The notes below the pieces were generated by a model, which was not told the origin of the DNA, made no database searches, and worked only from the letters and a program-made list of their open reading frames with translations. This document shows positions 12,621 through 37,882 of a stretch of 50,705 bases of DNA, piece by piece (position 1 is the stretch's first letter; every line of letters begins with the position of its first letter). The stretch comes from Anaerolineales bacterium (GTDB lineage: Bacteria > Chloroflexota > Anaerolineae > Anaerolineales > UBA4823): contig JBFFIU010000001.1 of the NCBI GenBank assembly GCA_041556275.1, positions 1 to 50,705 of the forward strand. The letters are read 5' to 3'. The position numbers and the translations under genes were made by a program.

Positions 12621-12641
12621 TGCTTTTAAGCGAGGGTGCTT

Positions 12642-13100: not shown

Positions 13101-13142
13101 GCTTTTTACTCCATTTATTACACTCTATACCGATCACCCTCG

Positions 13143-13163
13143 CTCCCCTACTCCCCAGCTTCC
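13143..13163. repeat. Right arm of the inverted repeat flanking the four-helix-bundle gene
   Basis: See 12642-12662. It overlaps the last codons and the stop of the 670-aa upstream gene. Confidence 0.4.
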
Positions 13164-15160: not shown

Positions 15161-15201
15161 ATGCAGTACTTCACCGATAAGGAGATTTTCACGCTATCCC
15201 G

Positions 15202-15750: not shown

Positions 15751-15792
15751 GACGGTTTAATGCGCTTTCACTTTCATTTTGAAAATCCCGGG

Positions 15793-16401: not shown

Positions 16402-16436
16402 ACTCAGATTCTATGCTCCTAGGATGCGACCAAAAG

Positions 16437-16934: not shown

Positions 16935-19018
16935 TATGCCTTTGCCGCCACGTAGCCAGTTTGTTTTGCAGACATGCGGACCGACTCGGGATCGCGGTCA
17001 GGCCAGGCCGCAACCAGCGTCCCAATGATAAACACGAATCCACCCAACCAGAGCCAATTAACCAGGGGATTGTGGTAGATCTTAAAGGTAGCTCCAGCGG
17101 TTGATATCGGTTGCCAATCCACCAGCAGGACGTAAAAATCATCCTCCCATGTACTCCGCACGCCCGGAATGGTCATGGGTTGCTGTGATTCGTAATAATA
17201 ATCACGGCGTGGGTAAAGTTCTCCAACAAATTGCCCGTTTTTATCGACGGAGACCACCGCCCGTGCGACATTGCGACCATCATCCGTATCAAATGCAGCC
17301 AGCGAATTGAAGGTGAGCGTGTAATCACCCAGGGCGATCGTCTCGCCTTGCGGGATAGTCCCCTGGGTCTCTGACTGGAAGATCTCGATTCCGATAATCC
17401 CGATCGCCATCAGAACTACGCCCAGATGGATGATATAGCCACCGTATCTACGGCGATTGCGTCCTGCCAGACGCCATAATGCAACTGGAAAGCTTTCACC
17501 TGAGCGGCGATGCCGAGCCCGGGCACCACGCCAGAATTCGTAAAGTGTGACTGCAGCCACGAAACTGCACAGCCAGAATCCCAATAAGGCTGCCGGGTTG
17601 CGGGTGCCGCTGACAATAACAACTGCCACCACCACCAGAGAGGCGATGAAAGGTTTCCAGACCGCTCGTCCCAGTGTTTTAGCTGAAGAAAAGCGCCAGG
17701 CCGCCAAAGGCGCAACGCCCATTAGAAGCAGCAGGCCAGCGAATAAAGGGGCGGTCGCCCGTTCGTAGAACGGCGGACCAACGGTGACTTTTTGCCCGGT
17801 GAAGACCTCTGAGATCAGCGGGAAAATCACGCCCCAGAAACAGACGACAAGAATGCCCATGAACAACAGGTTGTTGAGCAGAAACAGTGCTTCTCGCGAT
17901 AAAAGCGAAGTCATTTGCGTTTCCGCCTTGAGATCGTTCCAGCGTTTGAGCAGCAGCGAGAGGGATACAACAAAAGTAAGACCCATGAAGGCGAAGAAAA
18001 CCGGCCCAATTGCACTCTGGGCGAATGCATGCACGGAGGAAAGCACACCAGAACGAGTGAGGAAGGTGCCGAAGATCACCAGCTCATAGGTCAGGATGAT
18101 CAGGATCATATTCCAATGTTTCAACATGCCCCGTTTCTCCTGGATCATGACCGAATGCAGCAAAGCTGTTCCAGTTAACCAGGGCATAAAAGCAGCGATC
18201 TCCACCGGATCCCAGCCCCAATAACCACCCCAACCGAGGACATCATAGGCCCACCGACCCCCAAGTATCAGACCAAGCGAGAGGAACAACCAAGCAACCA
18301 GCGTCCAGCGGCGGGTGATGCGGATCCAGCGGTCATCAGTCCGGCCAGTGACCAGCGCGGCGATGGCAAAAGCATAAGGGATCACAAAAGAAACAAATCC
18401 CAGGTAAAGCATAGGCGGATGGATGATCATCCCTGGATGGCGCAGGAGCGGATTCAATCCGCTTCCATCAGCAGGTTTGAACAATACCGAGCCAGCTGGC
18501 TGCAGCATGGAAGTCGTAATTTCCCCAGCAGGAGTCTGCCAGATACGGACGAAGGGATTTTCGATAAAAACACTCAACCCGAGGAAAAAAGCCAGCGTGA
18601 CGAGGGAAACGATGATCACCCAGGGTAAGAATTCCTGATCACGCTTCCACTTGCGCAGGGTTACCGCCGAAGCAAAAGCAGCCAGCAGCCAGGACCAAAA
18701 GACGAGCGATCCCGGTTGCCCTCCCCACAATGCGGTGACCTTCAGGTAAAAGGGCATGCTGTTGCTGGTGACCGTGGCTACATAATTAACTTCATAGGCA
18801 TTGGAAACCAGGAGATAAATAATGCATAAAGCCGATACTGTTACTAAGGGAAAAGTCAGCAGCATAGCATTGCGCGCGCTGGCAACCCAGGTATGCTCTC
18901 CTCTGCGAGCGCCGTAGTAGGCAGCACCAATGCCGTAAAGAGAGATCAAAAAAGTGATAACGAGTGCCCCATATCCAATATTAGCAACCATAAAAGGCTT
19001 CACCTCTGTTACATGCAA
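16934..19018 (-). CDS. ccmF: Cytochrome c heme lyase subunit CcmF
   Basis: 694 aa polytopic protein with the WWD motif WGGYWGWDPVE. Confidence 0.95.
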   Translation of the reverse strand: MHVTEVKPFMVANIGYGALVITFLISLYGIGAAYYGARRGEHTWVASARNAMLLTFPLVTVSALCIIYLLVSNAYEVNYVATVTSNSMPFYLKVTALWGGQPGSLVFWSWLLAAFASAVTLRKWKRDQEFLPWVIIVSLVTLAFFLGLSVFIENPFVRIWQTPAGEITTSMLQPAGSVLFKPADGSGLNPLLRHPGMIIHPPMLYLGFVSFVIPYAFAIAALVTGRTDDRWIRITRRWTLVAWLFLSLGLILGGRWAYDVLGWGGYWGWDPVEIAAFMPWLTGTALLHSVMIQEKRGMLKHWNMILIILTYELVIFGTFLTRSGVLSSVHAFAQSAIGPVFFAFMGLTFVVSLSLLLKRWNDLKAETQMTSLLSREALFLLNNLLFMGILVVCFWGVIFPLISEVFTGQKVTVGPPFYERATAPLFAGLLLLMGVAPLAAWRFSSAKTLGRAVWKPFIASLVVVAVVIVSGTRNPAALLGFWLCSFVAAVTLYEFWRGARARHRRSGESFPVALWRLAGRNRRRYGGYIIHLGVVLMAIGIIGIEIFQSETQGTIPQGETIALGDYTLTFNSLAAFDTDDGRNVARAVVSVDKNGQFVGELYPRRDYYYESQQPMTIPGVRSTWEDDFYVLLVDWQPISTAGATFKIYHNPLVNWLWLGGFVFIIGTLVAAWPDRDPESVRMSAKQTGYVAAKA

Positions 19019-19089
19019 TGCGTGAAACGCATTATCAATTGCATTTCACGCATCAGTAGATCAATCAAAAACGAAACCCTGACAATACA

Positions 19090-19602
19090 CTAACCCTCAG
19101 ACTGCCCTGGAACCGCTTCTTCATATTTCGTAGGACATTTAAGCAATAACTCATCGGCATAGAACACGCCATCATCACCGAGCTCGCCGGTCATAATGGC
19201 TTGCGCTTCGTGTCGTAAAAGATCGGGTTTAACCCCAACATAAACTACTTGCATTTTAGTCCTGTCCGGATCAAGGACCGCGGCATGCAGGACTTCTGCC
19301 AGACCACCCTGGGCTTCGATATCTTTATTATCCCCAGGCACATGGGCTACTGTGAACTTCAATGTCAACGTTTGGGGATCATACTCTACTGAGTCACCGA
19401 TAACAGCTCCTGAAACACGCACATCCCGCCCAATGTCACCAGCTTCCCGGGAAGCCAATTCGTCAACGGTGAGGAAATACTGCGCGCTGGCTTGCGTCGA
19501 AGTCACGATGAGGTATACAATCGCTGCGACGATCAACAGTCCACCCACAATGAATTTGGCGCGGCCGCCAGTTTTTACTTGAGATGAAACGGGTTGTTCC
19601 AT
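19090..19602 (-). CDS. ccmE: Heme chaperone CcmE, Cys-type (CxxxY) variant
   Basis: TM anchor, OB-fold-like body (YFLTVDEL..., VRVSGAV), and a C-terminal LLLKCPTKYEE where canonical CcmE has LAKHDENY. I preferred the ATG at 19602 (GGAGGAG RBS) to the TTG at 19623. Confidence 0.85.
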   Translation of the reverse strand: MEQPVSSQVKTGGRAKFIVGGLLIVAAIVYLIVTSTQASAQYFLTVDELASREAGDIGRDVRVSGAVIGDSVEYDPQTLTLKFTVAHVPGDNKDIEAQGGLAEVLHAAVLDPDRTKMQVVYVGVKPDLLRHEAQAIMTGELGDDGVFYADELLLKCPTKYEEAVPGQSEG

Positions 19603-19720
19603 ATATTGCTCCTCCGTCACCAACTTTTATCGTATTGTCCTGTTACAACTCTTAATTCTGTCACACCTAGATTAAAGCAACCTGAGAGAATACCAAATTA
19701 AGCATGAGAGTGCGATTAAT

Positions 19721-20410
19721 TTAATCCAAATCGATCAAGCCGGTCCGAATGGCGAACTTGACCAATTCGGTTGATGAGTGCAGATTCAGCTTGTGCATGA
19801 TCCGTTCGCGATGCCTGGCAACTGTCTTGGGGCTGATTCCCAGCAGTTCGCCGATCTCAGCATTTGTATTTCCCTCAGCAACCGCCTCAAGCACCTGCAG
19901 CTCCCGTTGGCTGAGCACATCCAAACCTCTGCCTCTTTCCTCTGTTCCACCAATCTGGCGCCCTTCCAGCGGAGCCTGGATTAACAAGCGGCGGTAATCT
20001 TCCAACAACCAGCGTGCCAGTGCTGGTTGTAAATAAACATTTCCTGAGGCAACGCAGCGGATGGCAGTCACTAATTCCTCGGCGGCGACCTGTTTGGTAA
20101 CATACCCTGAGGCACCTGCGGAGAGCATTTCGAAGAGATACTGCTTATCCTCATGCACTGTAAGCGCCAAAATATAGCAGTCTGGATCGATCTCCTTTAA
20201 CCGCTTGGTTGCTTCCAAGCCATCCATCTCGGGCATGGTGATATCCATCACCACCAAGTCTGGGTTGGATTCTTGGGCGCGTTCGATCGCCTCACTGCCG
20301 CTGCTGGCTTCAGCCACCACCTGAATCCCCTCTTGGGTATCGAGGAATGATTTCAATCCAGTGCGTACAATATCGTGATCGTCAACTAACATTAACCGGA
20401 TGGTGCTCAT
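19721..20410 (-). CDS. NarL/LuxR-family response regulator
   Basis: MSTIRLMLVDDHDIVRTGL, DLVVMDITMPEMDG, and a LuxR HTH (LSQRELQVLEAVAEGNTNAEIGELLGISPKTV). The track start at 20584 is an in-frame extension running through the kinase gene. Confidence 0.9.
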   Translation of the reverse strand: MSTIRLMLVDDHDIVRTGLKSFLDTQEGIQVVAEASSGSEAIERAQESNPDLVVMDITMPEMDGLEATKRLKEIDPDCYILALTVHEDKQYLFEMLSAGASGYVTKQVAAEELVTAIRCVASGNVYLQPALARWLLEDYRRLLIQAPLEGRQIGGTEERGRGLDVLSQRELQVLEAVAEGNTNAEIGELLGISPKTVARHRERIMHKLNLHSSTELVKFAIRTGLIDLD

Positions 20411-21893
20411 CTGGCTTCTCCTCGACTGCGCTGATGCTGAATTCGTTAATCGGCACGATGACTTCCACGATCGTTCCGCCTCCTGCGGGGTTGGAGATAT
20501 GCAGCTGCCCCGAGACGGATTCGGCTCGTTCGCGCATGCCCTCCAGTCCCCAACCACGCTCGGGGGAAGCAGCCATCGTGGCATCCATGCCTACTCCCTT
20601 GTCACTTACTTCTAAAACTACATCTTCAACGTTAAACCATAATTTCACTTTCGCTTGATCGCACTGAGCATGGCGGGCGACGTTGGTGAGCGCCTCCTGG
20701 GCGACGCGGAAGATAACCGTTTCGATCAAAGGATCTAACCGCCTGCGCTGACCTTCAACCTGCAAAGCCACCTGCAGACCAGTACGCTTCTGCTCTTCTT
20801 CTCCCAGATACTGCAGGGCGGGGACCAATCCCAAATCATCTAATTGAGCTGGGCGCAGATCGTGCACCAAACGGTAGATACCTTGAGACATATCACGGGT
20901 CATGGTTTGCAGCTCGTCAAGCAGATCTTTTATGCGCGGCTGCATGGGGGCTAAATTTTTTAACGTTGCCAAATTCAAGCTGAGCGCGGTCAAGAATTGA
21001 GCTGTTTCATCATGCAGTTCACGTGCGATGCGCCCACGCTCCTCTTCCTGGGCGATGACCGTGTGGCGCAACAATTCTCGGCGCAAAGCTTCCCGCTCCT
21101 CCAGGTCGCGCTGCACCTGTTGGAGAGCTGCAAGCCGTTCCTGCTGGGCCGCTTGCAGCTGCTCCTCTCGCTCGCGATCGACGATCTGGATAGCCTGGAT
21201 CAGGTTCACAGTCACCAGTGCGGCCATGCTTGCCCGTACCAATTGAACAGGGAATCCAGCAATATTAAGGAACACTGTTGAATTGATGATATTCGCTGGG
21301 TACAAGTCGATCGGTCCCACAAAAACCTGTGTTAATCCATACAATGCGAAACCCACAGCAGCCCACCTGAAGCGACGGGCGAGTTTACCGCGTCCTTCGC
21401 GATCAACCTGCTGGGCACGCTTACGCAGACCTAGGCCAGCCAGGATCCCCCCAGGCACGGCCAGGGTATAACGGGCCAGGGTATCAGAGGGTTTGAGCAA
21501 CAAATCGGGCCGTTGATTGGTGACCACGATCAACAAAATCGCATAAACGATCATAATGCCGATCAAGATCGCCAATGGGACTCTTGCTCCCTTCTCTGGC
21601 CCGACAAGCATTAACAAACCAAAATAAACCAGGGGTACGAAAGAGATCACCAGCAATGCATAACGTATCCAGTCTAAGTATTCCGGAAAAGGAACACCCA
21701 GCCAGACTCCTTGCAGGAGCAGGATCTCGATCCATTCGTGCATACCATGCAGCAGACCAAACACCGCCAGCGGTTGCAGCACGCGCCGTTCTGCCAGTCT
21801 CGGAGCACGTGTCGTCTCCAGGAATAAGGCGATCCCCATTGAGAAGAAAGCCAATCCATAGATGAAGAATATTAAAACGATGTCCCACTGCAT
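20382..21893 (-). CDS. Membrane-embedded sensor histidine kinase (HisKA_3/NarX-type)
   Basis: About 6-7 N-terminal TM helices, a coiled coil, H-box RIARELHDETAQ, and an HATPase region (VSDKGVGM). Overlaps the response regulator start by 29 nt. Confidence 0.85.
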   Translation of the reverse strand: MQWDIVLIFFIYGLAFFSMGIALFLETTRAPRLAERRVLQPLAVFGLLHGMHEWIEILLLQGVWLGVPFPEYLDWIRYALLVISFVPLVYFGLLMLVGPEKGARVPLAILIGIMIVYAILLIVVTNQRPDLLLKPSDTLARYTLAVPGGILAGLGLRKRAQQVDREGRGKLARRFRWAAVGFALYGLTQVFVGPIDLYPANIINSTVFLNIAGFPVQLVRASMAALVTVNLIQAIQIVDREREEQLQAAQQERLAALQQVQRDLEEREALRRELLRHTVIAQEEERGRIARELHDETAQFLTALSLNLATLKNLAPMQPRIKDLLDELQTMTRDMSQGIYRLVHDLRPAQLDDLGLVPALQYLGEEEQKRTGLQVALQVEGQRRRLDPLIETVIFRVAQEALTNVARHAQCDQAKVKLWFNVEDVVLEVSDKGVGMDATMAASPERGWGLEGMRERAESVSGQLHISNPAGGGTIVEVIVPINEFSISAVEEKPDEHHPVNVS

Positions 21894-21974
21894 GAGGCGA
21901 TCCTTTCACCATCTGCTACAAGTTTTATTAACAGCTATTGTACAGCAAACGAATAAAACTATTGCTATCTTCAA

Positions 21975-21990
21975 TGTGACATTTGTCACA
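21975..21990. promoter_or_regulatory. Perfect CRP/FNR-family-type palindrome TGTGA-N6-TCACA
   Basis: TGTGACATTTGTCACA lies in the divergent intergenic region, about 185 nt upstream of the octaheme gene ATG and about 89 nt from the kinase ATG. Confidence 0.45.
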
Positions 21991-22167
21991 TAACCAGCGT
22001 TACTTATTCACTCATCTGGGATTTACAATTAGGGTAAAATAACTACGCAAAATTACACAACTCATATGTTAAATCTCCCTCTAAAATCGTCTGTAGATAC
22101 ACAAAATCAAATGACAGCACTCAGGTTCCTTCTGTTGGCTAACACCTACTAAATTTGAGATGAGACT

Positions 22168-23427
22168 ATGATGAAAACCTTGAAATTTGTTTTGATGATT
22201 GGCAGCTTGTTGATCATAATCGCTGCACTGGCAGCTTGCGGAGGGCAAGATGGTCCGCAAGGGCCTGCAGGTCCCGTTGGTCCACCTGGTCCAGATGGTC
22301 CGCATGGCCCTACCGGACCCGAAGGTCCGGTAGGGCCAGCTGGTGCTGAGGGGGAGACTGGCACTGGTGTGACAGGGGCTGAGTATGTAGGCAGCGCTAC
22401 ATGCGGCGGTTGCCACAAGGATACTTACGATACCTTTATTCAATCCGGTCACCCCTGGAAATTGAACCCTGTGATCGACGGACAGCCTCCAGATTACCCT
22501 TTTACAGGTTTACCTGAATTACCAGAGGGTTACACCTGGGATGATATTTCTTACGTGATTGGCGGATACAACTGGAAAGCCCGCTTCATTGACCAGGATG
22601 GCTACATCATCACAGACGAACCTGGCGCTTCAGGCAATGAAGAGTATCTCAACCAGTACAATTTCGCTAACCCGATCGTGGGCACCGAAGCCGGTTGGGT
22701 GACCTACCACTCAGGTGAATTAGAGAAGCCTTATGACTGCGGCGCATGCCATACGACCGGTTACAGCCCCAACGGCAACCAGGACGACCTGCCGGGCCTG
22801 GTCGGGACCTGGGCTGAACCTGGCATCATGTGCGAGGAATGCCACGGTCCGGGAGGCATGCACGTTAAAAACCCGCAGGGTGTTCAAATGACCATCGACC
22901 GAGATGCGGAGCAGTGCGGCAAATGCCATAGCCGCGAGGAGATCGAATCGGTCAATGCCAGCGGTGGCTTTATCCGTCACCACGAACAATATGAGGAGCT
23001 CTTCCAGGGTAAGCACATCGCCCTGGACTGCGTGATCTGCCACGATCCTCATCAAGGCGTCGTGCAGCTGCGCCAGGCAGGCATTCAGACCACGCGCACA
23101 CAGTGCGAGAACTGCCATCTTGATGAAGCGCAATTTCAGAACTCGCTAATCCATCCTGCTGCAACGGAGTGCATCGACTGCCACATGCCGCGCATCGTCC
23201 TGTCTGCGGTAGGTGACCCGGAGAAATTTACTGGCGACATCCGCACCCACCTGATGCGCATCAACCCCACCCAGATCGAGCAGTTTACCGAGGATGGCAG
23301 TGCCTCCCTTTCAGAGATCGGGCTGAATTTCGCCTGCCGGCACTGTCATGGCGTGACTGCCTCGGAAAAGAGTGACGAAGAATTGATCGAAAATGCAACT
23401 GATTACCACACGCCAACGGAGGAGTAA
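22168..23427 (+). CDS. Octaheme cytochrome c lipoprotein with an N-terminal collagen-like Gly-X-Y stalk
   Basis: Signal peptide and lipobox LAAC. 13 uninterrupted GXY triplets. 8 CXXCH motifs (CGGCH, CGACH, CEECH, CGKCH, CVICH, CENCH, CIDCH, CRHCH). Confidence 0.85.
22243..22359 (+). repeat. Collagen-like triplet repeat (13 x Gly-X-Y), coding
   Basis: [39 protein letters not shown]. Confidence 0.85.
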
Positions 23428-23460
23428 TCGCAACAAAAAGACTGCTTTCCAGTAATATCC

Positions 23461-23489
23461 AAACGGGCTGGGGCAGACCTGGCCCGTTT
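23461..23489 (+). terminator. Intercistronic hairpin (weak terminator or RNA-processing site)
   Basis: AAACGGGC (23461-23468) / GCCCGTTT (23482-23489). No clear U-run follows. Confidence 0.3.
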
Positions 23490-23536
23490 CACTCTAATTA
23501 ATAATTAATGGTGAAAATCGCAATTGGAGATAGTAA

Positions 23537-25246
23537 ATGAAAAGGTTCTGGCAAAGAATAAGGAATACTTTTAAGAATTTCTTCTTTCCTCCACCTGGTT
23601 CTCCTCGCTGGGCGCGAGTATTACCTTATGCTGTTCTGGGTATCTTAACTTTGATCGTGTTGACCGGGGCAGTTTTCGGCTGGGAATACACCAATTCCCC
23701 CCAATTCTGCGGCACAGCTTGCCACACCATGCCACCCGAATTCACAAGTTATCTGATCTCCCCCCATGCCCGCGTTGACTGCGTCGACTGCCATATCGGT
23801 AAGGGCTTTCTCGCCACGCGTGTCTCCCGCAAGGCTGGCGATCTCCGCCACATCGTCGCCACCACCTTCAACACCTACGAGTTTCCCATCCGGGCTCACC
23901 AGCTGCAGCCCGCCCGGGAGACCTGCGAGAAATGCCATTTCCCAGAGAAGTTCTCCGATGACAGTTTGCGTGAGATCAAGCAATTTAGTTCGGATAAAGA
24001 TAATACACCCCTGTCAACATTTTTAGTGCTCAAGACGGGCGGGGGCAGCAAACGCCAGGGGTTGGGGCGCGGCATCCACTGGCATATCGAGAATAAAATC
24101 GAGTACCTGCCCATCGATCCCGAAGAACAGGTGATCCCCTACGTGCTGGTGCATGAAGATGACGGCACGATCACGGAGTACGTGGACGTCGCATTTGATC
24201 TTGATCCCAACGATATCGATCCGGATGACCTGGTGGAGATGGACTGCATCACCTGCCACAACCGCATCACCCACCTGGTGAAGACACCAGAAGCGACGGT
24301 TGATGAGATGCTCAACCGCGGCATCATCGATCCGGAAATCCCCGATATCCGCCGCCAGGCGGTCGAAGCCTACAGCCAGATCTATGAAACCACTGAAATT
24401 GGCCTGGAAGGCATTGCCGGTATCGCCAGTTATTACCAGACATACTACCCTGAATATTACGCTGAAAACCAGGAAAAGGTCGCTGATGCCATCCTTGCCC
24501 TGCAGGATGCCTACGGCCAAAGCGTTTTCCCCGAGCAGAATTCCGACTGGACCACCCATCCCAATAACATTGGACATCAGGATTCTCCTGGATGCTTCCG
24601 CTGCCACGGCGGCACACATTTGAACGCCGAAGGGGAAGCTATTCGCCTGGAGTGCAACCTGTGCCACTCCATCCCGGTTGTCGCCGGTCCGGGTGATTTT
24701 GTATCCGAGATCGAGATCAGCCGCGGGCCGGAGCCCGACTCGCACAAGAATCCAAATTGGATCAGCATGCACCGGGATGTCTTTGACCCGACCTGCTCCA
24801 ACTGCCACACAATCGATAATCCTGGTGGGACGGACAATAGTTCCTTCTGCTCGAATACCGCCTGCCACGGCAGTGTCTATGAGTACGCCGGTTTCGATGC
24901 TCCAGGCCTGCGGGCGATATTGCGCGAACAACTTCCCCCTGAACCAACACCGATTCCACTGGCCGAGGGTGAAGCGATCACCTATCAAACCAGGATTGGT
25001 CCTATGTTCGAAAGCAAGTGCGGGGCATGTCACAGTGAGTCGAACAGCCTGGCAGGATTGGATCTGACAAACTATGAGGGCGCTTTGGAAGGCGGAGAGA
25101 GCGGCGCGGTGATACTCGCCGGTGACCCTGAAAACAGCCGATTGATCATCATTCAAAACAGTGACGAACCCCATTTCGCCCAACTCACAACTGAGGAATT
25201 GGACTTGGTCGTGGATTGGATCGCCAACGGAGCAGCGGAGAATTAA
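23537..25246 (+). CDS. Membrane-anchored NapC/NirT/NrfH-like multiheme cytochrome c (up to 9 hemes) with a C-terminal PSCyt1-like heme domain
   Basis: N-terminal TM helix (VLPYAVLGILTLIVLTGAVFGW). 7 CXXCH (CVDCH, CEKCH, CITCH, CFRCH, CNLCH, CSNCH, CGACH), plus CGTACH (CX3CH) and CSNTACH (CX4CH). Confidence 0.8.
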   Translation: MKRFWQRIRNTFKNFFFPPPGSPRWARVLPYAVLGILTLIVLTGAVFGWEYTNSPQFCGTACHTMPPEFTSYLISPHARVDCVDCHIGKGFLATRVSRKAGDLRHIVATTFNTYEFPIRAHQLQPARETCEKCHFPEKFSDDSLREIKQFSSDKDNTPLSTFLVLKTGGGSKRQGLGRGIHWHIENKIEYLPIDPEEQVIPYVLVHEDDGTITEYVDVAFDLDPNDIDPDDLVEMDCITCHNRITHLVKTPEATVDEMLNRGIIDPEIPDIRRQAVEAYSQIYETTEIGLEGIAGIASYYQTYYPEYYAENQEKVADAILALQDAYGQSVFPEQNSDWTTHPNNIGHQDSPGCFRCHGGTHLNAEGEAIRLECNLCHSIPVVAGPGDFVSEIEISRGPEPDSHKNPNWISMHRDVFDPTCSNCHTIDNPGGTDNSSFCSNTACHGSVYEYAGFDAPGLRAILREQLPPEPTPIPLAEGEAITYQTRIGPMFESKCGACHSESNSLAGLDLTNYEGALEGGESGAVILAGDPENSRLIIIQNSDEPHFAQLTTEELDLVVDWIANGAAEN

Positions 25247-25358
25247 CACGAAAATTTACCAAACTTAAAATTAAAACTATAAATTTGAATATCATTGGCA
25301 ACAAAATAGATTTTTAGCGGTAGTATCATAAGTTGGTAAGCACTAAAAGGAGGCAAGT

Positions 25359-25841
25359 ATGGAAGATAAAGAGCAGCTGAGCCGGCGGAATTTCTTAGCC
25401 ATCGCCACCGGAGCGATCGGGGGATTGATCGGCGTTGTCCTGGCGATTCCTGCAGTGGCTTACGTTGTCGGCCCCGCTTTACAGCGGACAAGAGCAGAGA
25501 ATTGGATCAGGCTCGGACCAACCTCGAAAGTCGAGCTCGGAACTCCCACTCTCTTCAAGGCCGTTGTTGAAAGCCAAACCGGGTGGATCCTGTCCGAGGA
25601 AGAACTCGCAGTTTATGTCCTCACAGAAGACGGGCGTGATTATATCGCTCTATCGAATATCTGCACTCACCTAGGCTGCCGGGTGCGTTGGATTACCGAT
25701 CAAGGTCAATACTTTTGCCCCTGCCACAACGCGGCCTTTGACAAAACTGGTCTGGTTGTATCTGGTCCTCCACCCGAACCTCTTGATCGCTATGAGACAA
25801 AGGTTGAGGATGATCAGTTGTATATCTTGTTGGGAGGTTGA
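25359..25841 (+). CDS. Rieske 2Fe-2S protein with a Tat signal
   Basis: RRNFLAIATGA, CTHLGCRV and CPCHNAAF boxes, AAGGAGG RBS. Confidence 0.9.
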   Translation: MEDKEQLSRRNFLAIATGAIGGLIGVVLAIPAVAYVVGPALQRTRAENWIRLGPTSKVELGTPTLFKAVVESQTGWILSEEELAVYVLTEDGRDYIALSNICTHLGCRVRWITDQGQYFCPCHNAAFDKTGLVVSGPPPEPLDRYETKVEDDQLYILLGG

Positions 25842-25842
25842 A

Positions 25843-26502
25843 ATGAGTGCGAGTTTGGGAAACTGGCTCGATGAACGCATCGGTTGGCGGAAGGTGTGGG
25901 ACGCCATATTCTTGCGTAAGATCCCCAAAGTAAATTGGTTCTATACCCTGGGCAGCGCCACGCTATTCATGGCCGCTTTACAGGGCATTACCGGGATCCT
26001 GCTGACGATCTACTATGTGCCCACACCAGATCACGCATACGACAGCGTGCAGTTTATCACCACCCAGGTGCCGGGCGGGTGGTTTGTGCGCGGCATCCAC
26101 CACTGGGGAGCCAGCGCGATGGTGCTGTTGACCGTCCTGCACATGGTACGTGTCATTATGTACGGTGCATACAAGTACCCCCGCGAGGTGACCTGGTTCA
26201 CCGGCGTGGGATTATTGCTCGTGGTGATGGGCTTTGGTTTCACCGGTTATCTCTTACCTTGGGACCAGAAAGCATATTGGGCAACTGTTGTCGGCACCCG
26301 CATCGCCGGAGTCGCGCCGCTGATCGGGGATCCGATCTTACGAATCATGCGCGGTGGTGAAGATTTATCAGCCGTCACCCTAGCGCGCTTCTTCGGCACC
26401 CATGTCTGGGTCCTGCCAACGATACTGCTGCTGCTGCTTGGGATCCACATGTACCTCGTCATCCGGCTTGGCATCAGCGCTGTTCCTCGCAGGGAGGATT
26501 AG
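25843..26502 (+). CDS. Cytochrome b, N-terminal (b6-like, 4-TM) subunit
   Basis: MSASLGNWLDERIGWRKVW..., WFYTLGSATLF, RGIHHWGASAMV..LH. The ATG at 25843 is 1 nt after the Rieske stop. The track start at 25738 overlaps the Rieske gene. Confidence 0.9.
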   Translation: MSASLGNWLDERIGWRKVWDAIFLRKIPKVNWFYTLGSATLFMAALQGITGILLTIYYVPTPDHAYDSVQFITTQVPGGWFVRGIHHWGASAMVLLTVLHMVRVIMYGAYKYPREVTWFTGVGLLLVVMGFGFTGYLLPWDQKAYWATVVGTRIAGVAPLIGDPILRIMRGGEDLSAVTLARFFGTHVWVLPTILLLLLGIHMYLVIRLGISAVPRRED

Positions 26503-26505
26503 GAT

Positions 26506-28623
26506 ATGGACGAAAAAGAGCGACAAGAATATCTGGAGCAGTATAAAAAAGAGAAGGAAAAGGGCGTTCCCTTTTTCCCGGACATCCTTTTCAAAGATGC
26601 GGTCATCTCCCTGGTGATCTTCATCATCCTGGTGGCTTTAGCCTATTTTATCGGCGCGCCGTTAGAACCACGGGCGGATCCAGCTGATACCACCTACACT
26701 CCCCGACCTGAATGGTACTTCTTGTTCCTATTCCAACTGCTGAAGTACTTCCCGGGAGCATTGGAAGTAGTTGGTGTTTTTATCATCCCGTCAGTAGCAG
26801 TCATCTTATTGATCGCCTTACCCCTGATCGACCGTTCTCCCAAGCGGCATTTCCTACGCAGGCCAGTGATCTTGGTAGCAACGATCCTGAGTGTTATTGG
26901 CGTTCTTTTTCTTACCATTCAATCGAATCGAGAGATACCCCCACCCCTGGAAATCGTCGGGGGCGACCAAACCGCCGTCTTGTATACAGAAAATTGTGCA
27001 CCCTGTCATGGCCCGTCGATGGCTGTCCCAGCAGGTGTCAATTTGCATGACATCATTGCTCAAGGCCAGCATGAGGACATGCCCGGCTGGAGCGGTGATC
27101 TCACTACGGATGAGATCGATGCCCTGGCAGGTTTTATTATCTCTCCAGCGGGAAGCCAGCTCTTCACCGACAATTGCAGCGAATGCCATGAGGTTACTGA
27201 GCTGGTTGCCAGCAACCCGCTCGTCTTGAGAGAATCCATCCAGCGCGGATTGGAATTTGAACCTCATGCGGAGCTGGAAATCCCCGATTGGAGCGAAACG
27301 ATCAGCCAGGAGAACCAGACCAAGCTGCTCAACTTCCTGGTGGCACCGGATGGTCAACGTCTCTTCGCCACCAACTGTGCCCCGTGTCATGGTCAGTCCG
27401 TTGCAGTAGCCGGGGGCGAGGAGCAGTTATTGGAGATCATCAGCCAGGGTGGATTGCACCTGGAAATGCCGCCCTGGAGGGACATGTTGAGCGATAGCGA
27501 TTTGGATCTCCTGGCCAGATATGTTACCGACCCCGCAAGTGTACCTGAAGGCGCGCAGACTTTTGAAAACAACTGTTCTGGCTGCCATGCGAATCGCATT
27601 CCCTCCGCTGGAGATGTTGAGACCGCCCGGCAGATCATCGCTGAAGGTGGCGGACACGAAACTATGCCCGTCTGGGGTGAGGTGCTCACTCCTGAGCAAC
27701 TGGACGCCTTAGTCACTTTCACTCTCGCTGCCGCAGAAGGCACCTCCGTGGAGATCGGTCAAGAAATCTACACGCAAAATTGTGTGCCTTGTCATGGCGA
27801 ATTCGGAGAAGGCGGCCCCAACCCCTCTCGCGCTGGAGATATCATCTTCCCTATCAGCACCGAGGAATACCTGAAAACAAGAGATGACTTCACCGTGCGC
27901 TCAATCATTGCTCAAGGTCAGCCGAATTTCGGCATGTCGCCTTTCGGCAGTAGCTTTGGTGGACCTTTGCAGGACGAAGAAATTGATGCCGTTGTAGCTT
28001 TCATCCGGTCCTGGGAAGCCAATCCGCCGGTGGAATTGCCTCCAGAAATCGTTGTTGCCGTGGAGGATACACTGGCACTGGACACGAAAGATATCTATGA
28101 CCAGCTGTGCTCACAATGCCATGGTTTAAATGGAGAAGGTGGTATTGGACCATCATTTATGGACTCCGAATTTCATGACAACATAACCGACAACCAACTT
28201 TTCGAAGCTATAAATGTTGGACATGAGGCAACCTCAATGATCGGTTGGGGTGATGTTCTAAGTGTTGATCAGATCCAGCAAATGGTCCTGCTTATTCGCC
28301 AATTTAGATCTTCACCGGTTGCAGGTCAACCAACAACTGCGGAAGTATCCTTTTCCGAAGATGTGATGCCTATCTTCGAGGCTGATTGTATTGCTTGCCA
28401 CGGAAATTTTGGGGGCTGGGATGCCAGCAGCTATACCAGTGTGTTAGGCACAGGTAACAACGCTCCAGTGGTCATACCCGGTGATCCAGAGAACAGTCTT
28501 CTCGCTCAAAAGATGACCGACACTCAATCTATTGGACAGATAATGCCTCCAGCCGGATTATTGCCTGATGATGAAGTACAAGTTGTCCTGGATTGGATCG
28601 CAGCAGGTGCACCTGATAATTAA
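26506..28623 (+). CDS. Cytochrome b subunit IV-like domain fused to seven c-type heme domains
   Basis: The N-terminus has PRPEWYFLFLFQLLKYFP (the subunit IV / cyt b C-terminal signature) and 3 TM helices. It is followed by CAPCH, CSECH, CAPCH, CSGCH, CVPCH, CSQCH and CIACH, each in a class-I-like context. Confidence 0.85.
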   Translation: MDEKERQEYLEQYKKEKEKGVPFFPDILFKDAVISLVIFIILVALAYFIGAPLEPRADPADTTYTPRPEWYFLFLFQLLKYFPGALEVVGVFIIPSVAVILLIALPLIDRSPKRHFLRRPVILVATILSVIGVLFLTIQSNREIPPPLEIVGGDQTAVLYTENCAPCHGPSMAVPAGVNLHDIIAQGQHEDMPGWSGDLTTDEIDALAGFIISPAGSQLFTDNCSECHEVTELVASNPLVLRESIQRGLEFEPHAELEIPDWSETISQENQTKLLNFLVAPDGQRLFATNCAPCHGQSVAVAGGEEQLLEIISQGGLHLEMPPWRDMLSDSDLDLLARYVTDPASVPEGAQTFENNCSGCHANRIPSAGDVETARQIIAEGGGHETMPVWGEVLTPEQLDALVTFTLAAAEGTSVEIGQEIYTQNCVPCHGEFGEGGPNPSRAGDIIFPISTEEYLKTRDDFTVRSIIAQGQPNFGMSPFGSSFGGPLQDEEIDAVVAFIRSWEANPPVELPPEIVVAVEDTLALDTKDIYDQLCSQCHGLNGEGGIGPSFMDSEFHDNITDNQLFEAINVGHEATSMIGWGDVLSVDQIQQMVLLIRQFRSSPVAGQPTTAEVSFSEDVMPIFEADCIACHGNFGGWDASSYTSVLGTGNNAPVVIPGDPENSLLAQKMTDTQSIGQIMPPAGLLPDDEVQVVLDWIAAGAPDN

Positions 28624-28707
28624 ATCTCATAAGAATCCATCGTCAACAGAGACGTGATTGATTATTGGTAATGAGGAAATTTCAAGCGATTTAACATACG
28701 AGTAGCT

Positions 28708-30213
28708 GTGGATTCAAAACGACGTTCTCGGTATTGGCCGATCAATGCCAATCTGCGCGCCAAGGTCACCCTTGGTGTGGTCGTGCCTTTGATCTTGATC
28801 CTTGGCATATTTACCGTAATCGAAGCCTCTCGTCACCGAGAGACCGAACTTTCCAACCTTTCTATACTTGCATCGCAATCCGGTATGGTGATCGAAAGTT
28901 CATTGCGAAACGCAATGTTGCAATCCGATTTCTCTGAAGTTCAAAGGATATTGGATGCGGTCGGTGATGCGGGGGAATTCCGTGTCGTATACTTAATGGA
29001 CAGCGATGGAAAAATAATCTTTGCACCGCATGGTGAGGGTGTTGGCGAGCGGTTAGACAACAAACACCCAACCTGCCAAGCGTGCCATAAGTTGCTGCCT
29101 GATGAGAGACCAAGCAGTGTCGTGGTGACAGATGATGATCAGCGCGTCTTTCGGAGCATGTATCCCATAAGAAATGCACCGGAATGCATGACCTGTCACG
29201 ATCCGGATAAACCGATTATCGGTTTGTTGCTCACCGATATCCCTATTACAAAGGTGGAATCAGCTTTAACAGCAGACTTACGCGAGAATCTGCTGTGGTG
29301 GGTCGGAACGATTTTAGCAACAGTTTTCGTTGTTAATGTTGCCATGAGCAACATTGTTATTAACCGCCTGCAAAAATTAGCCCAGGCTTTGGCGGGCTTT
29401 GGGCAAGACCAATTGAGTCTCCGGCTCCCCGCTGAAGAACCCGATGAAATCGGTCAGCTTTCAGAAGCCTTCAACAATATGAGCCAGCGCATTGAGGTTG
29501 AAGTGGCAGAAAACCGAGCCCTCTCCGATCACCTTTATCTGCAAAGCAAACAGCGTGGTGAACTGCTTAATCATTTGATCACAGCCCAGGAGGATGAGCG
29601 CAAACGTGTGGCTCGCGAACTCCACGATGATCTTGGCCAGGCGTTGGGGGCATTGGCCTTGCAAGCGGAAGCGACTGAAAAACTCATCACCTCCGATCCA
29701 GAACGTGCGATCTACCAATTGAACCTGATTCGAGAGCTGATCACCGAAACAACAGAACGGATGTATGAACTTATATTAGCATTGCGCCCCTCAACACTCG
29801 ACGATCTGGGCTTAGTCGTAGCTCTACAATCCCATGCTGATAGATTTCTATCCGGCAGCGGCATTGCCTTTGAATTAAATGCTGATGGCTTGTCCGATCG
29901 CCTCACGCCCGAATTGGAGACCGCCCTATACCGGATCTACCAGGAAGCCCTGAACAACGTCAGGCGACATTCCGGTGCGAACAGGGTATCCATCACCCTG
30001 ACAATGAACCACGGCTTTCTCGAAAGCGAGATACAGGATGATGGCCGCGGTTTTGATCCTCAGGTGTTAGACTCCAATGGAGACAGCCCGCATGGATTGG
30101 GATTATTGGGTATGAAGGAGCGCGTCAATCAGGCTTGCGGGAATATCGAGATCATCTCTCAACCAGGCATCGGCACACGCATCCATCTGCGTTTCCCAAT
30201 TAATGGAGGTTGA
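28708..30213 (+). CDS. Sensor histidine kinase (HAMP-HisKA_3-HATPase) with two CXXCH motifs in its periplasmic domain
   Basis: TM1 is at about residues 20-38 and TM2 at about 195-217. Between them are HPTCQACHK (nt 29074-29088) and APECMTCHD (nt 29185-29199). H-box RVARELHDDLGQ. GTG start. Confidence 0.8.
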   Translation: MDSKRRSRYWPINANLRAKVTLGVVVPLILILGIFTVIEASRHRETELSNLSILASQSGMVIESSLRNAMLQSDFSEVQRILDAVGDAGEFRVVYLMDSDGKIIFAPHGEGVGERLDNKHPTCQACHKLLPDERPSSVVVTDDDQRVFRSMYPIRNAPECMTCHDPDKPIIGLLLTDIPITKVESALTADLRENLLWWVGTILATVFVVNVAMSNIVINRLQKLAQALAGFGQDQLSLRLPAEEPDEIGQLSEAFNNMSQRIEVEVAENRALSDHLYLQSKQRGELLNHLITAQEDERKRVARELHDDLGQALGALALQAEATEKLITSDPERAIYQLNLIRELITETTERMYELILALRPSTLDDLGLVVALQSHADRFLSGSGIAFELNADGLSDRLTPELETALYRIYQEALNNVRRHSGANRVSITLTMNHGFLESEIQDDGRGFDPQVLDSNGDSPHGLGLLGMKERVNQACGNIEIISQPGIGTRIHLRFPINGG

Positions 30214-30866
30214 TCCTGGCTGATCCAATTCGCGTCCTCATCGCCGATGATCATACAATTGTTCGTTCAGGCGTTCGCCTGCTGCTGGAAGCCGAAGCTG
30301 ATATTGAGGTAGTTGGTGAGGCACTTGATGGTCGCGAGGCATTAAAACTGGCAAAATCACTCCAACCGGATGTAGTATTAATGGATATCACCATGCCAGT
30401 GATGGATGGGCTGGAGGCAACCAAACAGCTCAAAACGCGCTTCCCGCATATCAATGTCCTGGTTTTGACCATGCACCGATCAGACGAATATTTCTTCGAA
30501 ATGCTCAAAGCAGGAGCCTCCGGATACATCCTTAAAGGCGCCAAGACAAACGAACTTATCAATGCAGTCCGGGTTGTCCATCAAGGGGAGGTATTTCTTT
30601 ATCCCACGATGACTCAAAAACTGGTCCAAGGTTATCTTCAGTTAGCAGATTGGGAGAATGAGAGTGAACCTTCTCTGAGCCCGCGAGAAAAGGAGATCTT
30701 TCGATTGTTGGCAGAGGGTTACAGTAATAAAGAGATCGCCGAAAAGCTGGTCATTAGCCCCAGCACTGTTCACTCTCATCGTGGCAATTTAATGGACAAG
30801 CTTGGGCTGAGCAATCGCCGTGAATTAATTCAATACGCTAGGAAGCGTGGTTTGATCCAGAATTAG
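30210..30866 (+). CDS. NarL/LuxR-family response regulator
   Basis: IRVLIADDHTIVRSG, DVVLMDITMPVMDG, LuxR HTH (LSPREKEIFRLLAEGYSNKEIAEKLVISPSTV). The TTG start overlaps the kinase stop (TTGA). Confidence 0.9.
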   Translation: MILADPIRVLIADDHTIVRSGVRLLLEAEADIEVVGEALDGREALKLAKSLQPDVVLMDITMPVMDGLEATKQLKTRFPHINVLVLTMHRSDEYFFEMLKAGASGYILKGAKTNELINAVRVVHQGEVFLYPTMTQKLVQGYLQLADWENESEPSLSPREKEIFRLLAEGYSNKEIAEKLVISPSTVHSHRGNLMDKLGLSNRRELIQYARKRGLIQN

Positions 30867-31353: not shown

Positions 31354-31489
31354 TAGACCTCAGAATGTTCCTCCGAATAATAATAGTTCAATGTCCAATT
31401 TAATTATGCCGAGGAGGTTCACTATGTAAACTAACAAATAAAATACGATGGATTGGGGTTACCGAATGATTGATTTGAGGAGGTGCAGC

Positions 31490-32824
31490 ATGCTTCGTAA
31501 ATTCACTTTTATAACAATGCTTATTTTTGCTACACTGCTGTTAGCGGCTTGTGCTGGTGATCAAGGTCCCGAGGGGCCTGAGGGACCACCAGGACCCGCA
31601 GGTCCAGCTGGAGCTCAAGGCCCAGAAGGTTCACCAGGAACCGAGTTGACTGAAGATCAACTTGCGGCACTGGAAACTGCAGGCAATTTGGCTGGCATTC
31701 AGTTTCCGACTTTAGATGAGGTGCGTAGAGGTTGTCCGGCCTGCCATGTACTGGTAGATGAGGAAACTGGACAATATACACTTCCATATGAGGCTCACGA
31801 AAGGGCTGAAGCTCGTGGAGAAGAACATCCGGAGACTGCTCCAGATGGAACCTCGCTCGCAGCAACAGAGGAAGTTAATGTCACAACTTGCTTGCAATGT
31901 CACGCAGCCGGCACCGGTGATCGGGCTGGAAAAGGGGTCATTGCCCCACTGGCATTGCGTGATATCGTCCATCCTGCACACATGTACAGCCAGTGGTTTA
32001 AACTTCACTACGGCGGTAACTGCTTCACTTGCCACAATGTAGATGGTGAAGGCAATTGGGAATTGCTTACCGAAAAAGTTGAAGTGAATGAGAAAGGCGT
32101 CCCTGACCCGGATGCAGTGCCGATCCCGGGCGCCATTGCGATTGGTGGAGCACCATCATTATCAGGTTCAGTGGCCGCTGGCGGGAGATTGTACGACAAA
32201 TGGTGGAAAGAAGTTGGAGTAGACGAACCCAGTACGGACCAACCCTTGTGGGCTTCTCAAACCACCAACACCCGCAGTGGTGGCGACACCTGGCGTTGCA
32301 AAGAATGTCACGGGTGGGATTACAAGGGTGCCGACGGCGCTTATGGTTCTGGTTCCCACTTCACTGGTTTCCCTGGTGTGTTTGATGTCCAATCAGAATC
32401 CTTTGACACGATCGTAGCTTTTATTGATGGAAGCGCTAATTCGGATCACGACTTTTCAGCAATGGGTGATGAGGCTATCAATGACCTGGCGGCTTTTCTT
32501 TCTACTGGTCTTGCCGACTACGCACCCCTAATAAATGCCGAGACGAAAGCAGCCAACGGTGGCGACACCGCAAATGGCGAGTCTCTCTATGCTGCTTGTT
32601 CTGCTTGCCATGGAGAAGATGGGCGCTTGATCAATTTCGGAGATGACGACGATCCAACATACGTTGGTACTGTCGCCTTAGATAACCCTTGGGAGTTTCT
32701 GCATAAGGTACGCGCTGGTCAGCCTGGTACTGCTATGCCAGCCTCCCTTGATGCGAACTGGAGTATGGATGACTTGCTAGACCTGTTAGCTTTCTCCCAG
32801 ACTCTACCAACCGAGGTACCTTAA
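31490..32824 (+). CDS. Pentaheme cytochrome c lipoprotein with an N-terminal collagen-like Gly-X-Y stalk
   Basis: The ATG at 31490 follows a GAGGAGG RBS. Lipobox LAAC, 10 GXY triplets, and CPACH, CLQCH, CFTCH, CKECH, CSACH. Confidence 0.8.
   Translation: MLRKFTFITMLIFATLLLAACAGDQGPEGPEGPPGPAGPAGAQGPEGSPGTELTEDQLAALETAGNLAGIQFPTLDEVRRGCPACHVLVDEETGQYTLPYEAHERAEARGEEHPETAPDGTSLAATEEVNVTTCLQCHAAGTGDRAGKGVIAPLALRDIVHPAHMYSQWFKLHYGGNCFTCHNVDGEGNWELLTEKVEVNEKGVPDPDAVPIPGAIAIGGAPSLSGSVAAGGRLYDKWWKEVGVDEPSTDQPLWASQTTNTRSGGDTWRCKECHGWDYKGADGAYGSGSHFTGFPGVFDVQSESFDTIVAFIDGSANSDHDFSAMGDEAINDLAAFLSTGLADYAPLINAETKAANGGDTANGESLYAACSACHGEDGRLINFGDDDDPTYVGTVALDNPWEFLHKVRAGQPGTAMPASLDANWSMDDLLDLLAFSQTLPTEVP
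31556..31645 (+). repeat. Collagen-like triplet repeat (10 x Gly-X-Y), coding
   Basis: GDQGPEGPEGPPGPAGPAGAQGPEGSPGTE. Confidence 0.8.
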
Positions 32825-33424: not shown

Positions 33425-33431
33425 TAATGAA

Positions 33432-37756: not shown

Positions 37757-37882
37757 CTCTGCTGGCAAAGCCTGATTGTTGGAAATGTAAATAAATACTT
37801 TATTTCTACATCACCATATTCGATGGGCTCAAAAGTCCAACAAGGGAAGTTGCTTTGCGGAAATTAAACGAATACAATTGAT

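Follow-up and report, generated by a model that had tools for sequence, protein, structure and literature searches.

A stretch of 50,705 nucleotides (nt) from an Anaerolineales bacterium (contig JBFFIU010000001.1 of assembly GCA_041556275.1; hereafter the window) carries five co-directional genes, g1 to g5, which encode an octaheme lipoprotein (g1), a nonaheme cytochrome with an NrfH-like front end (g2), and a Rieske/cytochrome b6 complex (g3–g5) whose subunit IV is fused to seven cytochrome c domains. Comparison of related loci showed that these genes form a modular island: every Rieske/b6/heptaheme trio seen so far is accompanied by g2, whereas g2 also occurs without the trio, and g1 is an accessory member. 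The gene set is an abundant and strongly conserved feature of Anaerolineales rather than a curiosity of one genome. We tentatively read it as a menaquinol-oxidising electron-output island with two separable quinol oxidases, an interpretation of sequence to which we give a little less than an even chance.

A first-pass annotation of the window had described five genes in a row, the last three almost touching, with about 24 c-type hemes. Indeed, all five open reading frames were found on the plus strand where it had placed them (Table 1), with spacers of 109 (g1–g2), 112 (g2–g3), 1 (g3–g4) and 3 nt (g4–g5), and g1, g2 and g5 together contain 24 heme-c motifs, 22 of which are canonical CxxCH. This number is far beyond chance, because the motifs of g5 are invariant in 116 homologues and the pattern of g2 is kept in 116 of 118 full-length ones. 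The proposed list of parts (octaheme stalked lipoprotein, NapC/NrfH-like protein, Tat-exported Rieske protein, cytochrome b6, and subunit IV with seven c domains) agreed with Pfam, NCBIfam and PDB sequence searches, and two distinct quinol-interacting modules were recognisable as suggested, namely the NrfH/NapC-type N-terminus of g2 (matched to PDB 2j7a) and a complete Rieske/b6/subunit IV core with its PEWY motif. Database relatives of g1, g2 and g5 number in the thousands each. Among the best 120 matches of each, identity was at least 48% (g1), 64% (g2) and 54% (g5), nearly all being above 63%, and length was nearly constant; the relatives that bear a name belong to Anaerolineales or Chloroflexota. 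The entire window is identical to contig JBFFON010000002.1 of a Chloroflexota metagenome-assembled genome (MAG), GCA_041562795.1, and the arrangement recurs in CP070764.1, a complete Chloroflexota genome whose g5 is 79% identical.

We analysed how constant the association of these genes is. A g5 scan of genome contigs gave 5 loci; wider synteny came from retrieval of encoding contigs and from a g2-centred metagenome scan that gave 80 loci, 63 of them informative (at least 700 nt downstream). A g2 gene lies upstream of the Rieske gene in all g5-centred loci with readable upstream DNA (L001, L002, L004–L009, L011, L012 and the P0065 contigs, the last with a two-component system inserted between the two genes). 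In the g2-centred set the Rieske gene follows g2 directly in 43 of 63 loci, at a gap of 17–285 nt that falls below 40 nt in 11; a kinase/regulator pair intervenes in one locus (L085), and seven are otherwise arranged. In another 12 loci, g2 stands beside the gene of a decaheme lipoprotein of ~730 amino acids (aa) with a Cys/Pro-rich linker, and there are no Rieske/b genes on contigs of up to 8 kb. g2 is thus autonomous, and the first-pass view of an obligatory combination of the two modules fails in at least 12 of the 63 informative loci. The octaheme gene g1 immediately precedes g2 in 18 of 57 informative loci and is found farther upstream in 7 (25 of 57 in total). Absence of the octaheme and NapC-like genes beside Rieske/b in all relatives, which would have refuted the first-pass annotation, was not what we saw: the NapC-like gene is present upstream of Rieske/b in every readable g5-centred relative and the octaheme gene in the close clade, although many relatives lack g1.

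Stalked or linker-borne multiheme lipoproteins are encoded near the core in most loci. Many loci have one or two CbcL-like pairs (a 9-heme cytochrome c with an FdnI/HydC-like di-heme cytochrome b) upstream, and many have a decaheme lipoprotein or another collagen-stalked cytochrome downstream. The decaheme lipoprotein (~725–760 aa, CPxCP linker) is found, for example, at L012:12535-14733, with equivalents in L021, L024, L027, L032, L047, L066, L074, L087 and others; it often adjoins g2, whether or not Rieske genes are present. At E ≤ 0.01 nothing in the PDB matched its sequence, and its family matches were weak.

The first-pass annotation had also taken the five genes for a single operon. Between g1 and g2, however, there is a terminator-like hairpin (single-sequence fold z = −3.0). 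Nine related loci retain this hairpin, with loops that vary and compensatory changes at three of the pairs. It is followed by a TATAAT-like box ~30 nt upstream of the g2 start, near-invariant in the nine-locus alignment with flanks that vary; no −35 element was identified beside it. The hairpin is probably the terminator of g1 or a stabiliser of its mRNA end, and the box is a candidate promoter element of g2. These elements, like the inconstant position of g1, speak against a single five-gene operon, and they suggest that g1 is ended or stabilised separately and that g2 has its own promoter. Both came to light because the loci were aligned comparatively, not through a generic promoter/terminator scan, which over positions 21800-28800 gave counts no higher than in shuffled sequence. 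In the g2–g3 spacer, a promoter-like match recurs in one relative only, and conservation is poor save for ~35 nt before the Rieske start (25325-25358; consensus AAGTTGGTAAACGCC-AAAGGAGG), which may be a translational or regulatory leader. Since this spacer is mostly unconserved and is reduced to 17–38 nt in other lineages, co-transcription of g2–g5 appears the more likely arrangement.

The core of the trio is complete. g3 has the cluster ligands of a Rieske protein (CTHLGC...CPCH) and matched Pfam Rieske (E 4.5e-12), UCR_Fe-S_N and the NCBIfam b6f and bc1 Rieske models. Its box II reads CPCH-N-A-A-F, and 51 of 52 family members have CPCH-N-[GA]-x-F; the remaining one has Tyr in place of the Phe. 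In Rieske proteins of the ubiquinol and plastoquinol types, Ser and Tyr hydrogen-bond donors bring about a higher potential (PMC12954380), so the box II of g3, which has neither, points to a low-potential centre of the menaquinol type. For g4, the true start is the ATG at 25843 behind a GGGAGG site and not an upstream TTG. The four His ligands of hemes bL and bH lie in HHWGASAMVLLTVLH and THVWVLPTILLLLLGIH, and the protein matched Pfam Cytochrome_B (E 6.5e-50) and the NCBIfam models of cytochrome b6 (225 bits) and ExtP (213 bits); its best PDB matches were cyanobacterial and plant b6, aligned end to end (E 3e-52). Heme ci of cytochrome b6 binds Cys35 in a CxGG motif (PMC5600118). At this position g4 has Thr (YTLGS versus YCLGG), and thus the earlier assignment to b6-type cytochrome b stands as to family but without the heme-ci cysteine. 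In g5, PEWY occupies residues 68–71 and is invariant, like the seven CxxCH, in the 116 homologues. g3–g5 are predicted to act as a Rieske/b quinol:cytochrome c oxidoreductase with a Q cycle.

The cytochrome part of g5 begins ~25 residues past the last subunit IV helix. Domains c1–c4 are compact tandem duplicates (c1 and c3 are 46% identical), c5–c6 are larger and CcoP-like, and c7 (nt 28345-28620) is a PSCyt1 ('Planctomycete cytochrome C') domain. The Met sixth ligand is invariant in six of the domains across the 116 homologues, and domain 2 always has I, V or L. Therefore the picture of one long chain of c-hemes of a single kind had to be revised: g5 is a series of seven class-I monoheme domains, mostly His/Met, and we infer comparatively high-potential hemes rather than a packed low-potential wire. 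In a library clustered at 50% identity, fusions of subunit IV to cytochrome c carried 1 to 8 CxxCH, although many of the short ones may be contig fragments and counts below seven are not secure; shorter and longer variants alike bear 'Chloroflexi/Anaerolineae bacterium' labels. One relative (P0065, 1056 aa) has ten hemes, three of them in additional PSCyt1 repeats joined by Gly/Ser/Thr/Pro linkers. The variable heme count suggests that the arm is an extensible string of domains. We considered ARMA_0580 of Ardenticatena, a 74-kDa membrane cytochrome with seven hemes, as an orthologue of g5 and rejected it, as it has 430 aa and one helix; it may resemble g1 instead.

The second quinol module, g2, has one N-terminal transmembrane helix (residues 28–46) and nine heme-c motifs: seven CxxCH, a CGTACH (CxxxCH) and a CSNTACH (CxxxxCH). 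Its N-terminal module (residues ~24–149) matched Desulfovibrio NrfH (2j7a) with E 1.8e-9 as a single sequence and 4.6e-10 as a profile. The alignment takes in the helix, heme motifs 1–3 and the His-x-Met after motif 1, so that g2 heme 1 reads CGTACHTM (CxxxCHxM) against the CxxCHxM signature of the NrfH type; R98/K99 align with the quinol-site K82 of NrfH, and H105, with D102 nearby, aligns with D89. In family alignments of 64 homologues, all nine motifs, M65, R98, K99, D102 and H105 are invariant. Pfam PF03264 scored 36.6 bits (cut-off 24.1), but over profile positions 13–100 of 174 only, and the fourth heme comes only after a ~100-residue insert without hemes (LKTGGG...GIHWH). The NCBIfam NrfH model gave 62 bits against a cut-off of 134, and we rejected g2 as an NrfH equivalog. 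By these matches, g2 appears to carry an NrfH/NapC-type front end without being NrfH itself. After the fourth heme follow a helical non-heme domain, confidently folded in the AlphaFold2 model, a c3-like tetraheme stretch and a C-terminal PSCyt1 (nt 24974-25243). In one related locus (L002:7108-8808), the g2 homologue is interrupted by an in-frame TAG at a position held by Arg in relatives (IPYV*V), which reflects either an error of assembly or a pseudogene.

The C-terminus of g2 also matched FoxE (5mab; E 7e-7), an Fe(II) oxidase. This resemblance of heme domains, the His/Met hemes of g5, which would suit a high-potential donor, and Ardenticatena, where both cathodic and anodic transfer were observed (PMC5808234), would fit electron uptake from Fe(II), a cathode or a partner cell, with the Rieske/b complex reversed for part of the flow. 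However, the FoxE match is one of a generic class-I fold, the window shows no context of autotrophy or Fe oxidation, and reversal of a menaquinone-linked complex would be costly; we regard this direction of flow as highly improbable.

g5 domain c7 has its nearest relative in the C-terminal PSCyt1 of g2 (33–35% identity, E 1e-16), ahead of all other domains of g5. A PSCyt1 that shares 42% identity with the one of g2 (E 8e-21) also forms the C-terminus of an FdnI-like cytochrome b in relatives. This FdnI/HydC-like di-heme protein, paired with the 9-heme cytochrome c in a CbcL-like manner, is encoded at L002:5861-7057 and has equivalents in ~25 related loci, none of them in the window. The presence of one terminal monoheme domain on three unrelated quinol-linked membrane proteins suggests a common output or docking adaptor. 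g5 c7 retains an MPP motif (Met680), whereas in g2 and the FdnI-like protein a His lies no more than two residues from this site, which hints at a higher-potential version of the domain in g5 and a lower-potential one in g2.

It is conceivable that the tie between g2 and the trio is physical, with g2 a stoichiometric subunit of the Rieske/b6 complex. Such a supercomplex would have two quinol sites and a 16-heme c network, and might split the electrons from the Qo site between a high-potential g5 arm and a low-potential g2 arm. The invariable position of g2 upstream of g5-type cores, the very short g2–Rieske spacers in many loci, the equal conservation of g2 and g5, and the common PSCyt1 with its His near the Met position of g5 are all consistent with it, as are the added multiheme subunits of the anammox and Geobacter Ext complexes (PMC12954380, PMC5877670). 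Yet g2 occurs alone in at least 12 of 63 loci, a two-component system can separate it from the Rieske gene, and the AlphaFold2 model of g2 was unusable; we consider a stoichiometric complex improbable. A broader proposal, in which g2–g5 form one supercomplex that is the main quinol-to-exterior outlet of Anaerolineales filaments, with a Q-cycle Rieske/b6 core, an NrfH-type entry and two arms, His/Met in g5 and bis-His in g2, whose PSCyt1 ends dock wall-spanning collagen-stalked lipoproteins, is in our judgement also unlikely, if less so. If true, it would be an undescribed route of extracellular electron transfer in monoderms, possibly with potential-dependent or bifurcating use of the arms.

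The accessory protein g1 consists of a signal peptide ending at a lipobox (Cys24), 13–14 unbroken GXY triplets and a head with the eight hemes. Among its homologues, the GXY run has 9–21 triplets (116 homologues), the lipobox is found in 113 of 120 and eight hemes in 115 of 116. Pfam Collagen scored 24.9 bits, slightly under the 27.2 cut-off, and multiheme families were also matched. The head was most similar to OcwA (6i5b; E 3e-17 single sequence, 6.8e-21 family profile), with weaker profile matches to the S-layer cytochrome 6qvm (E 3.5e-8), MccA (4rkm; E 1.6e-7) and octaheme nitrite reductases (E 1.6e-4), and on these matches belongs to the OcwA/MccA/NrfA lineage. Homology to OcwA covers the c554-like tetraheme and beta-sheet part; the C-terminal half of g1 matches weakly. 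A collagen triple helix rises 0.286 nm per residue. Three relatives of g1 (P0422, P0425 and P0458; ~715–724 aa, 48–53% identical to g1) have 15–16 hemes and no collagen-like stalk, and their length and heme count suggest two tandem g1-like heads.

Two further lipoproteins in the window, encoded at 31448-32824 and 40284-41378, likewise combine a lipobox and a GXY run (10–14 triplets in the three proteins) with multiple CxxCH (5 and 6, respectively, versus 8 in g1). Each of the three adjoins a quinol-oxidising module, that is, the g2/Rieske complex and the upstream and downstream sides of alternative complex III. In the open-access literature searched, we found no report of collagen-like sequence paired with a multiheme cytochrome.

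The kinship of g1 raises the question of whether g1 and g2 together could be an NrfHA-like reductase for nitrite, hydroxylamine or a sulfur oxyanion, fed with quinol independently of the Rieske complex. The superfamily of g1, which includes the octaheme nitrite reductases, the NrfH-like N-terminus of g2 and the direct succession of the two genes in 18 of 57 loci would all agree with such an enzyme, and OcwA itself reduces nitrite and hydroxylamine (PMC6703420). However, there is no CxxCK or other recognisable catalytic-heme signature in the g1 sequence, its good match to OcwA is limited to the c554-like N-terminal half, a rigid stalk of 11 nm is ill-suited to docking on a membrane-bound NrfH partner, and over half of the loci lack g1. 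We think such a reductase slightly less probable even than the stoichiometric complex of g2 with the trio.

The surroundings of the five genes are rich in regulators and cytochrome genes. Directly downstream lies a two-component system of the NarL/LuxR type (Table 1), whose kinase (HAMP, HisKA_3) has CxxCH at residues 123 and 160 in an outward-facing Cache-like sensor and is probably a heme-c redox sensor. A two-component system directly follows g5 also in L001, L003, L011, L016, L017, L034, L069, L088, L090 and L092, and homologues of the two-CxxCH kinase do so in L011 and L003. The upstream system sits between the ccm genes and g1, and the order ccmF-ccmE-regulator-kinase-(g1)-g2 recurs in many loci.

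Table 1. Positions in the window of the five genes, the elements between g1 and g2, and the adjoining regulators (TM, transmembrane).
Feature	Position	Strand	Details
g1, octaheme c-type lipoprotein with collagen-like stalk	22168..23427	+	419 aa; lipobox LAAC; 8 CxxCH; Pfam, PDB
Hairpin between g1 and g2	23462..23488	+	GC-rich, 10 bp; nine-locus comparison
−10-like box	23500..23505	+	AATAAT here, TATAAT in relatives; nine-locus alignment
g2, membrane-anchored nonaheme cytochrome c	23537..25246	+	569 aa; NrfH/NapC-like N-terminus, PSCyt1 C-terminus
g3, Tat-exported Rieske [2Fe-2S] protein	25359..25841	+	160 aa; SRRNFL Tat motif; Pfam Rieske
g4, cytochrome b6-type di-heme b subunit	25843..26502	+	219 aa; 4 TM helices; four heme-ligand His
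g5, subunit IV with seven class-I cytochrome c domains	26506..28623	+	705 aa; 3 TM helices; PEWY; 7 CxxCH
Downstream NarL/LuxR-type two-component system	28708..30866	+	kinase 28708-30213, regulator 30210-30866; Pfam
Upstream divergent two-component system	19721..21893	−	multi-TM HisKA_3 kinase 20382-21893, LuxR-type regulator 19721-20410

Elsewhere in the window, a System I maturation cluster occupies 10283-19623 on the minus strand (ccmA/B/C-like genes, a thiol-disulfide oxidoreductase, ccmH, ccmF and ccmE); it includes a diheme class-I cytochrome of 670 aa, a large additional part of which weakly resembles an anammox S-layer protein. At 32909-39969, an alternative complex III operon (pentaheme ActA, then ActB, ActC, ActD and ActE) precedes the gene of a lipoprotein that has three cytochrome c domains of class I, with no terminal oxidase gene adjoining. 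An NhaA-type Na+/H+ antiporter fused to an N-terminal DsbA/thioredoxin-like domain (4911-6770) adjoins a peroxiredoxin gene.

The identities of the parts are near certain, and from them we infer the direction of electron flow, heme potentials, contacts, stalk function and final acceptor that make up the electron-output scheme. The host cell is probably monoderm, as Anaerolineales reportedly have no Gram-negative envelope; an abundance of multiheme cytochromes has been reported for them as well (PMC7399161). Among Chloroflexi isolates, the Ardenticatena mentioned above performs extracellular electron transfer with surface cytochromes. In such a cell, the first module (g3–g5) would oxidise menaquinol at the PEWY Qo site and pass one electron to the low-potential Rieske cluster, from there to c1 of g5, just past the last helix, and over six more tethered class-I hemes to the terminal c7; the second electron would take hemes bL and bH, and the Q cycle would conserve energy. 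This module would need an acceptor above the Rieske potential, roughly +0.1 V. The second module (g2) would oxidise menaquinol in the manner of NrfH, without charge separation, and conduct electrons to its own PSCyt1 over some eight hemes, probably with bis-His ligation; such hemes would suit lower-potential acceptors. Tethered multiheme lipoproteins such as g1 would receive the electrons of both modules. The OcwA-like head of g1, held ~11 nm off the membrane on its stalk, could relay charge across the wall or past it, to acceptors that are distal or insoluble. The flanking NarL-type two-component systems, one with the heme-c sensor, would select between the branches. An electron-output or extracellular role of the cluster is plausible, and the idea of extracellular output gains some support from the homology of g1 to OcwA and from the stalks.

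Several points weigh against this scheme. No terminal acceptor or reductase was identified for the cluster. His/Met class-I hemes would be poor donors to Fe(III) oxides, so that the Rieske branch may merely feed oxidases; genes of cytochrome c oxidases are present and transcribed in Anaerolineae MAGs (PMC11748557), and the Chloroflexi bc complex has been treated as part of aerobic respiration (PMC5826079). The adjacency of the genes could reflect a clustering of cytochrome genes near ccm genes. The 39 GXY residues of g1 would span ~11 nm if a collagen triple helix forms, which is a prediction, and g1 could be an enzyme, because proteins of the OcwA family also reduce nitrite and hydroxylamine. 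The AlphaFold2 models are too poor to judge heme packing or contacts: for g2 (64-sequence alignment), the predicted local distance difference test (pLDDT) was 56.3 and the predicted template-modelling score (pTM) 0.29, and for g1 the pLDDT was 57.6, with heme-binding regions below 50 in both.

The strongest competing explanation is an ordinary complex III, in which g3–g5 would be a menaquinol:cytochrome c oxidoreductase that feeds membrane terminal oxidases or N-oxide reductases, while g1 and g2 would be unrelated neighbours in an island of cytochrome and ccm genes. The heptaheme arm would then replace soluble cytochrome c, which would be lost from a cell without a periplasm. The class-I His/Met domains of g5, on the design of QcrC, would be as expected, as would the occurrence of g2 without Rieske/b genes, the hairpin and −10-like box after g1, and the company of ccm, alternative complex III and cytochrome genes in the window. 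The oxidase transcripts and aerobic assignment just cited fit as well, and in the same transcript study, which was based on KEGG, Anaerolineae MAGs were scored with two of the three complex III subunits (PMC11748557). Such an account does not readily explain, however, why each g5-type core that we saw has g2 upstream, in many cases 17–38 nt away, or why g2 and g5 have paralogous terminal domains. Seven to ten domains, moreover, far exceed the need for reaching an oxidase, and there is no oxidase gene in the window or the flanks examined. We think an ordinary complex III unlikely, albeit a serious contender, and retain the two-branch output scheme as the tentative preference.

Anaerolineales are among the most abundant bacteria of sediments, wetlands, aquifers and wastewater sludge, and their respiration is poorly known. 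Standard annotation of the cluster proteins is generic ('mono/diheme cytochrome c family protein', 'NapC/NirT family cytochrome c'), and a score of two out of three complex III subunits is what would be expected if the c subunit goes unrecognised. A Rieske/b6-heptaheme complex with a near-constant g2 and frequent stalked lipoproteins offers a testable model of electron export from a cell without a periplasm, one that would explain a choice between an energy-conserving and a low-potential branch. Three reusable elements deserve structural study: the extensible arm of class-I hemes, the PSCyt1 'end' domain and the collagen-like cytochrome stalks.

We compared the cluster with known systems. The open-access literature searched held no report of a heptaheme class-I arm on subunit IV, of the Rieske/b6-heptaheme architecture as a whole, of a constant NrfH-like nonaheme neighbour, of a shared PSCyt1 end domain or of collagen-stalked OcwA-like lipoproteins, and a 2017 paper on the evolution of bc complexes mentions neither Chloroflexi nor multiheme fusions. 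Canonical complexes carry one or two c-hemes, as the first-pass annotation had pointed out, and g5 alone has seven. The closest design is QcrABC of Firmicutes (the Bacillus b6c complex), which has a low-potential Rieske protein and oxidises menaquinol in monoderm bacteria. The order is the same in both (Rieske protein, four-helix b6, and subunit IV fused C-terminally to class-I cytochrome c), but where QcrABC has a single c domain, the Anaerolineales complex has seven (and some relatives 8 to 10); it also lacks in g4 the heme-ci Cys that Firmicutes have, and always has the NrfH-like nonaheme gene upstream. From cytochrome b6f proper it differs in the absence of a PetA-like (cytochrome f) gene and, again, of the heme-ci Cys.

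The anammox precedent for Rieske/b complexes with multiheme partners, invoked in the first-pass annotation, was borne out. In Kuste4569-4574 and Kustd1480-1485, a b6-like four-helix b and a subunit IV-like protein are combined with hexa- or octaheme cytochromes that replace cytochrome f (PMC12954380). The anammox complexes, however, have NAD(P) oxidoreductase subunits, a five-helix subunit IV, and Rieske potentials of +303 and +335 mV with a Ser donor in both (PMC12954380), whereas here subunit IV has three helices, the Rieske signature is that of a low-potential centre, and there is no flavoprotein or FeS gene in or beside the cluster. Geobacter ExtKLMNOPQS (GSU2937-2930), of uncharacterised function and not named in the first-pass annotation, is a further precedent and likewise encodes a Rieske protein (ExtO), a b6-like ExtP and a subunit IV-like ExtQ together with 12-, 10-, 5- and 4-heme cytochromes (PMC5877670). 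There, in contrast, the multiheme proteins are separate from subunit IV, no NrfH-type partner is present, and the host is a diderm with a porin-like ExtI; as equivalogs of ExtP and ExtQ, g4 and g5 were rejected (213 bits versus 290, and 24 versus 150).

g2 resembles NrfH, NapC, NirT and CymA in its single N-terminal helix, and its first three heme motifs are in register with Desulfovibrio NrfH, but it has 569 aa and nine hemes, compared with ~160–200 aa and four in that family, and its heme 1 is CxxxCH. OcwA, from the monoderm Thermincola potens, is a cell-surface terminal reductase of the NrfA/MccA lineage (PMC6703420); g1 has eight hemes instead of nine and is a lipoprotein on a GXY stalk, which OcwA lacks.

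As for the use of several quinol:cytochrome modules side by side, Geobacter has the alternative inner-membrane quinol oxidases ImcH, CbcL and CbcBA, which are used according to the redox potential of the acceptor. The presence of two such modules here, and of CbcL-like pairs in relatives, is a functional analogy only, the phylum and the envelope being different; to our knowledge, the Geobacter set has no Rieske-based member. Multiheme partners of Rieske/b proteins, in anammox bacteria and Geobacter, and the fusion of subunit IV to cytochrome c, in Firmicutes, were thus already known, and the heptaheme-arm design of Anaerolineales is a variant of these.

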